Part shown: piece by piece, positions 30,001-33,000 of the stretch
Numbering within the stretch: position 1 is the first letter of the stretch
How the letters are laid out: every line of letters starts with the position of its first letter
IMG/VR virus record: IMGVR_UViG_2563366968_000002
Source: a virus
Taxonomy: Duplodnaviria > Heunggongvirae > Uroviricota > Caudoviricetes
Direction: 5' to 3' (one strand)
DNA: 40,086 nucleotides
Program-made: the position numbers

Positions 30001-33000
30001 GCATAGACCAGCTCTTTACAGACATACGTCCCACCATTGCGCCCCTGAATGGTGATGACAGGAATACTACGGGAATCTCCCGTAGTTTCTTCTTCCAATA
30101 ATTCCACAAGAGCCTTCGTTTCAGGACGACGCATAAACTCGTGAACTTCCAGCGAACGGGAGGAGCGATTCTCACCAGCGGCAAGAAGAGCAGCTTTCTG
30201 AAGGTCGTTAAGACAGTAGTTAGATTCGAAGTACTGGCGCACAGAAACGCCATCAATTACAAGCAACTGATTCATTGGTTTCTCCACAAATTTTTATCCA
30301 CGAGCGGGACTGCACTCCCTTTTCGTTGATGCAGGATGAACTTACTGCGATTTTTAATAGTTATCAAGGATACACTGTTCATAAATACAGTATCTTTAAC
30401 GAGGTAATACCCAAATTTAGGGTGTTGCTCAATTCCGTTACCGAGTTGCTAATTTGCAACTCGCTTTTTCGTACTTACTGATAGTGATCTCGACCTTCCC
30501 CTCCGGGATAACCGGTCCCCACTCCACCAGCATTCTTTTCACCTGACTGTCGTCTTCCCACACACCCGCGTGGGTCAGGGCGTCAAACAGCGCCTTGTTA
30601 TAGTTGTCCAGATCGCGGATCCTGTTATCCGGAGGAAACAACACGATCTCCACTGAAGCAGGTGCCGACGTTGGTTTCGGCAGACGACGTAACTGCTCAA
30701 CTATTGCTGCGCACGCCGCGCTCTGGAATTTTCGCCCCGCCGCGCTTATCAGGCTCTTACCAGCAAACGCCCCTTTGTTGGGGTGTCGCCAGTACGTGTT
30801 CACGCTGGGCGGAAAAGGCAGTATTAGCTTCATACTTTCAGGCCCCTCTCATGTAACCAGTGGGTTGCACGCAGCCTTGCGTTTTCCTCACCGGCAAGCA
30901 GTGCGCGGATAATCCCGACCGCCTCGCTGTCGTCGTCCTTCATCGCAGTATGAAGCGTTATCCCCCGGGCCACGCCACGCTTTATCGTGATGACGCCTTT
31001 TTTCTCCAGTGCGCGAAGATGCTCCACCGCTGCATTCACCGAACGGTATCCCAGCATGGTTGCCACCTCCTGATTGGTTGGCGGGAAGCCACGTTCTTTC
31101 TGATAAGAAATCAGCATATCCAGCACCTGCTGCTGGCATTGAGTTAACGTCGTCATGCCGCCATCTCCCTGACCAGTTTTTCCGCCTGCTGGCGAACCTG
31201 CGCCAGAAACGCCTCACCACATGCCTCAAGTTCATCGCGCCCTATGTAGCTGATTGCCGGTCCCTTCCAGGTCTTGTCGAAAACAGCAATAGCACCAGCG
31301 AAGAAAGCACCTGTTGGCACCTGCTTTTCGTCTTTCGGGATAAACCAGGCAGGCAGTTCAAAACCAATACGCCCGCGAATAAAAGCAATATGATCTGCAT
31401 CTTCCGGCCACCACACTTCGCTGGTGGCAGCTTTGATCAGGAAAACATAGCGCCCGCCTTTATCACGCATGGCACTGGCATGTTTCATGATGTAACGCAT
31501 GCCGGTGATGTATTGCCCCTCATGCTGACTGGCGCGGCTGTACGGGGGATTACCAAAGGCAGCACCTTTAAGCTCCGCAAGACGTTCAGACCAGTCATGC
31601 GCCAGCGCGTTGTCTTCCGCAGTGTAATAAGCGGCACATTTGGCGTTATCACCATCAGTGAACAGATCCAGAACAAACGGGCCAAACAGGGTGTTAATTC
31701 CCCAGAAAATGTTGTCCGGCGTGCGCCACTGATCGCCCACTTCCTTCAGTTCATGGGCTGGTTTGTTCCGCAGCTCCACCAGCGCCTGGCAATATTTATT
31801 ACTCATTAAGCCCCCACGTAATTCCCTGACAGATACCACTCTTCACCCGATGCAGCGCGCTTGCTGCTTTTCCGTAAGCACCGCTCACGATGCGCCAGAA
31901 AATTGTTTCGTTCTGGCTGGGAGTGGCTTTCACGGAATGCCTCCATCCACACCGTTGCAGCTCGACGGAATAAGCCCCTGGACTCCAGTTCTTCCGCCTG
32001 GCGAGTCAGGCACAAAATCACCTGCGGGTCGTTAGTGCCGACACAGAAATTGCGCACAGGTCTGGTTTCACGAACTGGTTGTGGTTCCGGCTCCTGTGCT
32101 CTCTCAGTCAGGCGCGGGAAATGTCTGCGTGTATCTCCTTCACAACGGTGAGCCGCACGCCCACTCTGACGTAACTTGCTTGCTGACTGCAGAACGCGCT
32201 GCCGTGAGTAACCTGCAAAAGCATCCGCAATGTCTCCGGAAGTACACCCCGGATGGGCTTCAATGAATTTCTGAACTTCATTCAAAAGACTCATGATCAC
32301 CCCCTGAATCCTGCCGGGATCTGGCTGTAGTCCACGTTGTCGTAACTGGCTTTGAAGTACGGGTCCTCGCGTCTGGCTGCAGATACCGCAGGAACTTCCC
32401 AGGATTCTTCGAAATGACGATCCGGACCAAAGAACGTGACAGCCTGTTTCACAAATTGTGTGCCGCTGTTACCCATCGCAGATACCCAGCCCGCGTAGCG
32501 TTTCACACCTTCCAGCATGGTTTCGGGTTTTACCCCCTCATTCAAACGGGCTTTCCAGGCTTTGAAGGCTGCAGATTTTGAATTGCCACCAGCACGTTTG
32601 GGGTATGCCAGCCATGCCTGCTCAAACTCCGGAGAGTATTCCGGTCGGTTTGAACGAACTCGCACAGACTCATCAGCAGATGCACCAACAGCTATTGGTT
32701 CATTGACTGGTTCTTTGACTGGTTCAAAAGAGTGACTGGTTCTGGGTGAATCTCCTGCACCACCCCCTGGTGCAACTCCTGCACTACCTGGTGAATTTGC
32801 TGCACCAGATAGTGAATTATTTGCACTACCCCCTAGTGAATCTCCTGCACCATCAAGATGAAGGAGATAGATATTACTTGAGTTACCTTTTTCACCTTTC
32901 CGGGTGACTTTTTTTACCAGCCCGGACTCACAAAGGGCCGCAATATGATTCATCACAGAACGTTTGCTAATCTCGCACTGGTCAGCAATATGCTGGTAGC

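Follow-up and report, generated by a model that had tools for sequence, protein, structure and literature searches.

A probable theta-replication origin inside the initiator gene of an SfV/Stx2c-type lambdoid prophage

Origins of replication that lie inside a phage gene are known from P22 gene 18, SPP1 G38P oriL and the rep genes of lactococcal and streptococcal phages, in which repeats bound by the N-domain of the protein are followed by an AT-rich segment. In phage lambda, the origin sits within the initiator gene, between the parts coding for a type-specific DNA-binding N-domain and a partner-specific C-domain, and cro and a cII-like gene precede this gene in an early operon of the pR type. 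Four to six dyad iterons about two helical turns apart, as also in the 933W-type Stx phages (in lambda four dyads at nt 349–433 of gene O, with spacings of 20, 24 and 23 bp), are followed directly, downstream by transcription, by a low-stability element (PMC5043065, PMC3349717). The two iterons nearest the AT-rich region form, together with that region, the minimal unwinding unit, and the lambda O protein binds single-stranded AT-rich DNA (PMC7466680). At oriC and in iteron plasmids (RK2 oriV, F, P1, R6K and pSC101), phased initiator sites likewise adjoin an unwinding element of short direct repeats, whose sequence matters at oriC and RK2 and one strand of which the initiator can capture (PMC5043065). 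Here we analyze a 40,086-nt stretch of Caudoviricetes DNA (IMG/VR record IMGVR_UViG_2563366968_000002; "the window" denotes this whole stretch) and consider it very likely that positions 32692–32850, within the linker-coding part of the phage's own replication initiator gene, are the theta-replication origin of an SfV/Stx2c-type lambdoid prophage. A lambda-like, gene-internal candidate origin had been proposed here in a first-pass annotation, and the proposal is supported by comparisons of reading frames, of the tracking of repeat arms by the recognition helix, of block conservation and of layout.

How closely does the locus resemble the described systems? The gene-internal position between the two domains, the phased dyad iterons and the operon context of lambda recur, with two candidate segments for the low-stability element, and the likeness is one of architecture, not of homology. 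We detected no sequence relationship between the two initiators: BLASTP against lambda O was not significant (best score 21 bits over 22 amino acids (aa)), and no Phage_rep_O match was found in Pfam at E≤0.01. The iterons are 15 bp long, as against 18–19 bp in lambda, and unrelated in sequence; the window phage is without a P-like loader gene; and where lambda has a purine-asymmetric 40-bp AT tract, this locus has three to four direct 10-mers that are moderately AT-rich and invariant across hosts. With the iteron plasmids and oriC it shares phased sites beside short direct repeats. In the plasmids, however, Rep monomers bind iterons that are directly repeated and placed outside the rep gene, usually along with DnaA boxes, whereas the window sites are dyads inside the gene, which suggests binding by a dimer, and no DnaA box was seen by eye. 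The P22, SPP1 and lactococcal-type origins involve other protein families and other repeat sequences, the only link being a DnaD_N score of 24.3 bits for the initiator, under the Pfam cut-off of 27. The same N-domain family, repeat position and invariant block are found in the HTH_36 proteins of PHROG 270, 391 and 8540 ("replication initiation O-like"), among which we compared those of SfV, ST64B, mEp460, cdtI, Stx2c phages, Min27, ZF40 and AsXd-1. Records and RefSeq label these initiators only "replication protein" or "helix-turn-helix domain-containing protein", and none of the examined records of the family annotates an origin, iteron or block feature.

Two kinds of repeat, dyad iterons and the direct repeats of the block, occupy positions 32692–32850 (Table 1) and encode aa 89–141, between the HTH_36 domain (aa 17–67) and the C-domain. 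In sense order, the AT-rich end of the N-domain coding region is followed by five 15-bp dyad iterons (GTGCAnnAnWTTCAC, spaced 24, 21, 21 and 24 bp), then by 2 nt, then by AGAACCAGTCAC TCTTTT GAACCAGTCA AA GAACCAGTCA AT GAACCAATAG. The first-pass annotation had placed three TGACTGGTTC repeats and four to five GTGAAT...TGCACCA units in the linker-coding part of the gene, and on each count it proves accurate. TGACTGGTTC is exact on the plus strand at 32704, 32716 and 32733, with no further exact copy in the 40 kb (six matches against 2.33 expected when one mismatch is allowed) and a degenerate fourth copy, CTATTGGTTC, at 32692–32701. The longer units number five, and the motif GTGAATNTNCTGCAC has eight matches in the window against 1.22 expected, a number reached by 0 of 100 shuffles. 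The treatment of all these repeats as one iteron array stands only in part: the dyad units are iterons, and the TGACTGGTTC copies belong to a separate block that is nearly invariant in the family. Tandem Repeats Finder returns periods of 12, 21 and 24 at the array; the only other tandem array in the 40 kb is a two-copy 15-mer at 34739, and the dyads are the only clustered candidate initiator sites.

Table 1. Features of the initiator gene and of the candidate origin within it (window coordinates)
Feature	Position	Strand	Sequence or product	Remarks
Replication initiator gene	32297..33115	minus	272 aa, ATG at 33115	ORF (open reading frame) list, Pfam, PHROG, DNA identity
N-terminal winged-helix domain coding region	32852..33115	minus	aa 1–88	
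AT-rich stretch	32860..32899	.	encodes wing KKVTRKGEKGNSSNIYLL	upstream-flank unwinding candidate
Iteron 1	32836..32850	minus	sense GTGCAGGAGATTCAC	GTGAATNTNCTGCAC unit at 32836, 0 mismatches
Iteron 2	32812..32826	minus	sense GTGCAAATAATTCAC	GTGAATNTNCTGCAC unit at 32812, 2 mismatches
Iteron 3	32791..32805	minus	sense GTGCAGCAAATTCAC	GTGAATNTNCTGCAC unit at 32791, 0 mismatches
Iteron 4	32770..32784	minus	sense GTGCAGGAGTTGCAC	GTGAATNTNCTGCAC unit at 32770, 2 mismatches; perfect 5-bp dyad
Iteron 5	32746..32760	minus	sense GTGCAGGAGATTCAC	GTGAATNTNCTGCAC unit at 32746, 0 mismatches; 2 nt from invariant block
Invariant 28-bp block	32716..32743	minus	sense AGAACCAGTCACTCTTTTGAACCAGTCA	holds GAACCAGTCA copies 1 and 2, 17 bp apart
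Direct repeats 3 and 4	32692..32713	minus	exact GAACCAGTCA at 32704–32713; degenerate GAACCAATAG at 32692–32701	each 12 bp from the preceding copy
C-terminal domain coding region	32300..32677	minus	aa ~147–272	PHROG matches, tblastn

All repeat spacings in the window are multiples of 3, and the linker peptide is repetitive (GAGDSL GGSANNSL ... EPVKEPVNEP); because of these spacings, the window alone cannot separate DNA repeats from an in-frame duplication of peptide. Relatives were therefore sampled with the first 87 residues of the initiator only, a query that excludes the repeat region, yielding 80 loci in species-representative genomes that range from Enterobacter to Pseudomonas, Shewanella, Marinomonas, Aeromonas and Cardiobacteriaceae; all conservation statistics given here come from this protein-ascertained sample. 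Since a further sample, of viral contigs, had been selected through the block motif, it served only for gene context and for the helix and iteron tables. Of the 61 distinct arrays that contain three or more GTG.A-N5-T.CAC units, 42 have iterons in two reading frames; some units are inverted, and the same 15-mer can encode SAGDS, VQEIH or SESPA in one protein. Spacings in relatives are almost exclusively 21, 22, 23 or 24 bp (typically 23, 22, 21 and 24, with 24 as the last), which on this comparison is helical phasing, at about two helical turns, and not codon periodicity; the iterons of lambda, at 20, 24 and 23 bp, show like behavior. Variable sites in 18 distinct arrays of close relatives make up 5 of 50 positions in the iteron arms, as against 19 of 61 in centres and spacers (Fisher p=0.01). 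Judged by these relatives, the iterons are selected as DNA and not as peptide.

These comparisons bear directly on the simplest competing account, that the repeats are in-frame duplications of a flexible Gly/Ser/Ala/Pro-rich linker with no function as DNA. Such an account would fit the multiple-of-3 spacings of the window, its low-complexity, repetitive peptide, and the variation in iteron number from 4 to 8 among close relatives, since linkers tolerate expansion. It does not accommodate a 15-mer that relatives carry in two frames and in both orientations within one gene at a phasing of 21–24 bp, arms that are better conserved than spacers, or the behavior of the block described below, in which third positions are more conserved than non-synonymous ones and a repeat changes frame between copies of one gene. 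We give this account very little credence. The first-pass annotation had itself named plain coding-sequence duplication as a competing possibility, and the two-frame iterons, the inverted units and the third-position identity of the block contradict it.

Two observations on the iterons may be recorded here. In phage cdtI (L001, 3038–3922), an otherwise near-identical gene is longer by 66 bp and carries 8 iterons, and a second relative (L028) has 7. The 24-bp iteron spacers of the window (32761–32769 and 32827–32835) hold a G5/C5 tract, TAGGGGGTA or its complement, at the same position in most relatives (L131–L210). One such tract stands before the last iteron in almost all family members, irrespective of iteron type; the tracts may lengthen the binding site or impose a bend.

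The presumed recognition helix, ISKRSVMNHIAAL (aa 49–61), was compared with the iteron arms over 154 distinct helix/array pairs. Helices of the form IS[KR]RSV[MI]NHI pair with arms GTGCA or GTGAA, ISKRSVMRHI and CDKRTAMRHI with GTGAC, MSRKTAIGHI with GTGTA, IGRSTVK.HI and VSRSTVKSHI with GGGCA, IDRSTVR.HI with TAGGC, and CSKSAVR.HI with TGCCA. When one N is replaced by R and the helix is otherwise the same, all copies in the array read GTGAC instead of GTGCA. Such concerted identity of all copies within an array is what would be predicted for sites read by a shared binding protein.

Directly after the iterons comes the second element, the 28-nt block AGAACCAGTCACTCTTTTGAACCAGTCA, which is present within ≤5 edits in 79 of the 80 relatives, always 282–444 nt into the gene, and to which the last iteron is joined at a fixed 1–2 nt in every family member seen. 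For pairs of relatives with an N-domain protein identity of ≤80%, identity at synonymous third positions is 0.425 in the N-domain and 0.38 in the wing-coding stretch, third codon positions of the block are 0.95–0.98 identical, and identity over all positions of the 90 nt after the block is 0.32. Variation within the block falls mostly at non-synonymous positions. The two GAACCAGTCA repeats are its invariant part, and the spacer TCT TTT is the most variable (with TCT, CTT, CCT and TTA variants); even Pseudomonas prophages, whose sequence becomes GC-rich immediately past the block, retain AGA, a rare Arg codon. Direct repeats follow one another at (17), (17,12) or (17,12,12) bp across the family, whose range covers temperate phages of Enterobacterales, Pseudomonas, Shewanella, Aeromonas, Vibrio and Marinomonas. 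A motif scan of the viral contigs, a motif-ascertained sample, placed the block only within genes of the initiator family.

The frame in which the repeats are read is not constant. In the window gene, copy 1 of GAACCAGTCA is read as (A)GA ACC AGT CA(C), giving RTSH, and copies 2 and 3 as GAA CCA GTC A, giving EPV. In intact genes of Shewanella (L201, L202, L207) and Parashewanella (L180, L186), copy 1 is itself read as EPV (HPEPVTLEPVNES); the three copies of an Aliivibrio relative (L195) are read RTSH, RTSQ and EPV, and one copy in the Arsenophonus relative (L212) falls in the third frame, as NQS. In Shewanella profunda (L191), about 390 nt into the gene, both copies have been changed jointly to GAATCTATCA, read as ESINLESIN, and this joint change suggests that a single factor reads both. 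By these comparisons, the block is conserved as DNA and not as peptide, independently of reading frame and host. The type-specific recognition helix is unlikely to be what reads TGACTGGTTC, because the block is near-invariant whatever the iteron type.

Could the block act in RNA instead? A regulatory structure, a Rho or Nus site (a boxA-like CUCUUU) or a recoding signal might be suspected from its sense RNA, which is C-rich and G-poor and contains CACUCUUUUG, and a −1 slip on UCU UUU G would meet UGA at once. An Rfam scan of 32200–33400 found no family, only a chance miRNA match; the sense RNA folds no better than its shuffles (z=−1.4), with the block unpaired in the centroid structure; and the block is kept in other reading frames. 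We therefore regard a role in RNA as highly improbable. The −1 frameshift and the boxA-like CUCUUU were dropped as candidates, since the spacer positions that they would use are the most variable part of the block. The promoter/terminator scan returned no promoter-like site, and its one antisense hairpin, terminator-like, is no more than expected by chance.

Where, then, would the DNA open? Two segments flank the iterons. The first-pass annotation had pointed to the AT-rich stretch at about 32860–32900, and its AT-richness is confirmed: 32860–32899 has a GC content of 0.325, ranks within the lowest 2.3% of window 40-mers in stability and is the less stable of the two flanks there. Its position is less favorable, since it lies upstream of the iterons by transcription, on the side opposite lambda's AT-rich region, and its synonymous identity among relatives is only 0.38. 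Its composition can be accounted for by the conserved Lys/Asn/Ser/Tyr/Ile codons of the wing that it encodes. On the other side, 32690–32729 has a GC content of 0.375 and lies at the 11th stability percentile of the window. When 75 relatives are aligned on the block, mean duplex stability has two minima that flank the iterons, the deeper of which is the block, with a GC content of about 0.40 even in Pseudomonas prophages. The block stands directly after the last iteron, downstream by transcription, where lambda has its AT-rich region. We favor the block as the unwinding and loading element because of this lambda-like position, the affinity of lambda O for single-stranded DNA and the precedent of the oriC and RK2 repeats, and we judge this assignment to be about evenly balanced.

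The opposite assignment, an origin at this locus that opens at 32860–32899, with the block serving as a homologous-recombination joint at which initiator N-modules and helicase-recruiting C-modules are swapped, a second binding site or a dual-coded peptide motif, is rather unlikely in our view and yet deserves serious weight. Near the array, no segment of the window is less stable than that stretch, the equivalent wing-coding segment is AT-rich throughout the family (GC content 0.39–0.43), and an unwinding element need not keep its sequence. Moreover, the block lies exactly at a mosaic boundary, just after which identity falls to 0.32 and the C-domains and partner genes differ. Set against this are the side on which the stretch lies, the wing codons that explain its AT-richness, and the deeper family-mean minimum at the block with its fixed 1–2-nt junction to the last iteron; nor would a passive recombination joint need the concerted change to two copies of GAATCTATCA seen in S. 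profunda. Service as a recombination joint is, in any case, compatible with an origin role of the block and not an alternative to it.

We propose the following sequence of events at the origin. The five GTGCA-N5-TTCAC dyads, which sequence comparison marks as conserved DNA sites about two helical turns apart, would each be bound by a dimer of the N-domain through ISKRSVMNHI, producing a complex like the lambda O-some. This complex would destabilize a flanking low-stability segment, by preference the block. Its three to four GAACCAGTCA repeats at 17/12/12 bp would act like the sequence-specific 13-mers of oriC and RK2, and a conserved host factor, or the initiator through a part that does not vary, might capture them as single strands. 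The C-domain would then recruit the replicative helicase, probably host DnaB with DnaC; we suggest this pair because the operon is without a helicase or loader gene and the C-domain is shared with phages that encode DnaC- and DnaB-like proteins. If lambda is a guide, activation is probably aided by transcription of the operon across the origin. Tentatively, and with a little more doubt than belief, we extend this model to a portable origin core: the block may be a sequence-specific signal for unwinding and helicase loading. Its reader, probably acting on single-stranded DNA, would be either an N-terminal surface of the initiator that is invariant or a host factor that is conserved, whatever the iteron specificity and whichever helicase or loader is recruited. 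The block may also be the crossover point at which initiator and helicase-recruiting modules are exchanged.

It is conceivable that the dyads bind the initiator for another purpose, such as autoregulation, a transcriptional roadblock or copy control, with the origin elsewhere. Winged-helix proteins often autoregulate, plasmid iterons also serve copy control (PMC5043065), and cloned lambda iterons inhibit replication in trans (PMC3349717). The sites lie, however, 265–370 nt inside the gene and not at a promoter, the promoter scan having found none there; the 40 kb contain no second site cluster or comparable tandem array; and the last iteron is joined, at a fixed distance, to an invariant block of direct repeats of low stability, which fits the anatomy of an origin. 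We hold a purely regulatory role to be quite unlikely.

Several points weigh against the origin as we have drawn it. The five iterons of the window share one frame, so that the decisive evidence comes from the relatives, and the covariation of helix and iteron is confounded because the two are only about 100 bp apart. The block is only moderately AT-rich (GC content 0.375–0.40), the stretch at 32860–32899 being less stable in the window, and comparison by eye with the DnaA-box, IHF and oriC 13-mer consensus sequences gave no convincing match in it. With no loader encoded by the phage, the delivery of the helicase is wholly inferred. Finally, the literature searched contains no experimental demonstration of binding, unwinding or autonomous replication for this initiator family.

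The protein that would act at this origin is a member of the HTH_36/PHROG 270 phage replication initiators. Its N-terminus matches Pfam HTH_36 (aa 17–67, E=1.8e-11, 44.1 bits against a cut-off of 25) and the match to PHROG 270, "replication initiation protein", extends over its full length (aa 3–271, E=1.1e-88). It corresponds to orf39 of SfV, to sb42 of ST64B and to the replication protein of Stx2c phages, and its gene is 98–99.9% identical in DNA to the replication-protein genes of 2H10, 1720a-02, SfV, mEp460, cdtI, Ayreon and many Stx2c/Stx2a phages. The presumed role of the C-domain is to bring in the helicase or its loader; PHROG 26426 and 3729 match these C-terminal 125 aa, as does phrog_1701, "DnaD-like helicase loader" (aa 147–249, E=7e-33). 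The Pfam scan of the initiator found only families of the HTH type and no plasmid-Rep family, and a PDB sequence search found no homologue of solved structure.

N-domain, iterons and block travel as one module. The C-domains to which it is fused are unrelated, and its downstream partners are of at least six types. The window phage, SfV, ST64B and Vibrio phage D67 have none; AsXd-1 has DnaC-like and DnaB-like proteins, Klebsiella phage ST13-OXA48phi12.5 a lambda-P-like protein, SI5 and Min27 a primase-helicase, ZF40 a DnaB-like protein and the Arsenophonus plasmid a DnaC-like protein. The C-domain of the Klebsiella hybrid has no homology to lambda O. The C-domain of the window initiator is common to phiP27 and AsXd-1, both of which encode DnaC-like and DnaB-like proteins, and tblastn gave matches confined to the C-domain.

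More distant initiators follow the same plan, dyads and then two to three direct 10–12-mers, with other sequences. PhiP27 (L009, NC_003356, 2012–2938) combines a different helix-turn-helix N-domain with TCAGAnTCTGA dyads and two copies of AAAACATGATCCGCAAG. In Vibrio phage 252E42.2, GTGACAGAGAGTCAC dyads precede two copies of CCTAACAnTA set 12 bp apart, and relatives in Piscirickettsia and in Massilia, a beta-proteobacterium, carry degenerate pairs of AAYCRTCA. The "P27" origin of PMC7466680, described as lambda-like with six iterons, does not match the phiP27 record.

What do these observations add to the known picture of phage origins? In anatomy and modular logic the locus works like lambda ori; what is added is an invariant block, independent of frame and host, that may act as a sequence-specific core of the origin. 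The literature searched yielded no paper on the origin of this initiator family (SfV, ST64B, "initiator-solo" or lambdoid phages), and a search by motif strings recovered unrelated primer sequences only. The initiator is carried by Stx2c-converting, SfV serotype-converting and cdt-carrying phages, and a full-length copy is present in 897 of 5426 complete Escherichia coli genomes, O104:H4 strains included. How much toxin is made reportedly depends on replication of the phage (PMC7466680). Placing the origin provides a target for studying or blocking the replication of toxin-converting prophages. The pairs of helix and half-site form a natural table for one winged-helix family, and iterons plus core offer a compact module for building replicons. 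The block illustrates clearly how a DNA signal can be concealed within coding sequence and be read in three frames, and it would allow sequence specificity in origin unwinding to be tested directly in a phage system.

The neighborhood of the initiator gene is a lambdoid early-right operon of the pR type. In the direction of transcription, genes for a cI-like repressor, a Cro/YdaS-like protein, a CII (CP76)-like protein, Rha/Ash and a small ORF precede the initiator, and genes for a PerC-like protein, Dam, a LexA-like protein, RusA, KilA-N, DUF968 and Q follow it; no helicase or helicase-loader gene, P-like or other, was found in the early operon. The initiator gene overlaps both of its neighbors, with its start codon in the stop of the ORF upstream (ATGA) and its stop codon in the GTG that begins the PerC-like gene. 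The latter gene (31806–32300, minus strand), 3′ of the initiator, encodes a PerC/ANR-like regulator homologous to yfdN, and yfdN and yfdO of the CPS-53 element of E. coli K-12 are apparently remnants of the same module, according to notes in the ST64B record.

Some circular "plasmids" of about 38–48 kb in PLSDB carry members of the initiator family together with phage lysis genes (L212, the Piscirickettsia plasmid L214, and H93–H98). One of them, the Arsenophonus plasmid pArsFIN11 (L212), is typed as rep_cluster_2302, and its record begins at the initiator gene. These elements look like episomal phage genomes or phage-plasmids, and as circular elements of about 40 kb with the initiator they lend weak support to autonomous replication.

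Elsewhere in the window, a ParA-like ATPase gene (Pfam AAA_31/CbiA; 36400–37485, plus strand) lies directly past the cI-like repressor gene. It is unusual cargo at that position for an integrating lambdoid prophage and could be a partition, exclusion or defence gene. An AraC-family regulator gene (HTH_AraC/HTH_18; 26058–26771, minus strand), downstream of the Q antiterminator gene (28074–28460), may be a moron, that is, an accessory prophage gene. The second tandem array of the window, the two-copy 15-bp repeat AATGTCACCAATGTC at 34739–34768, lies within the CII-like gene.

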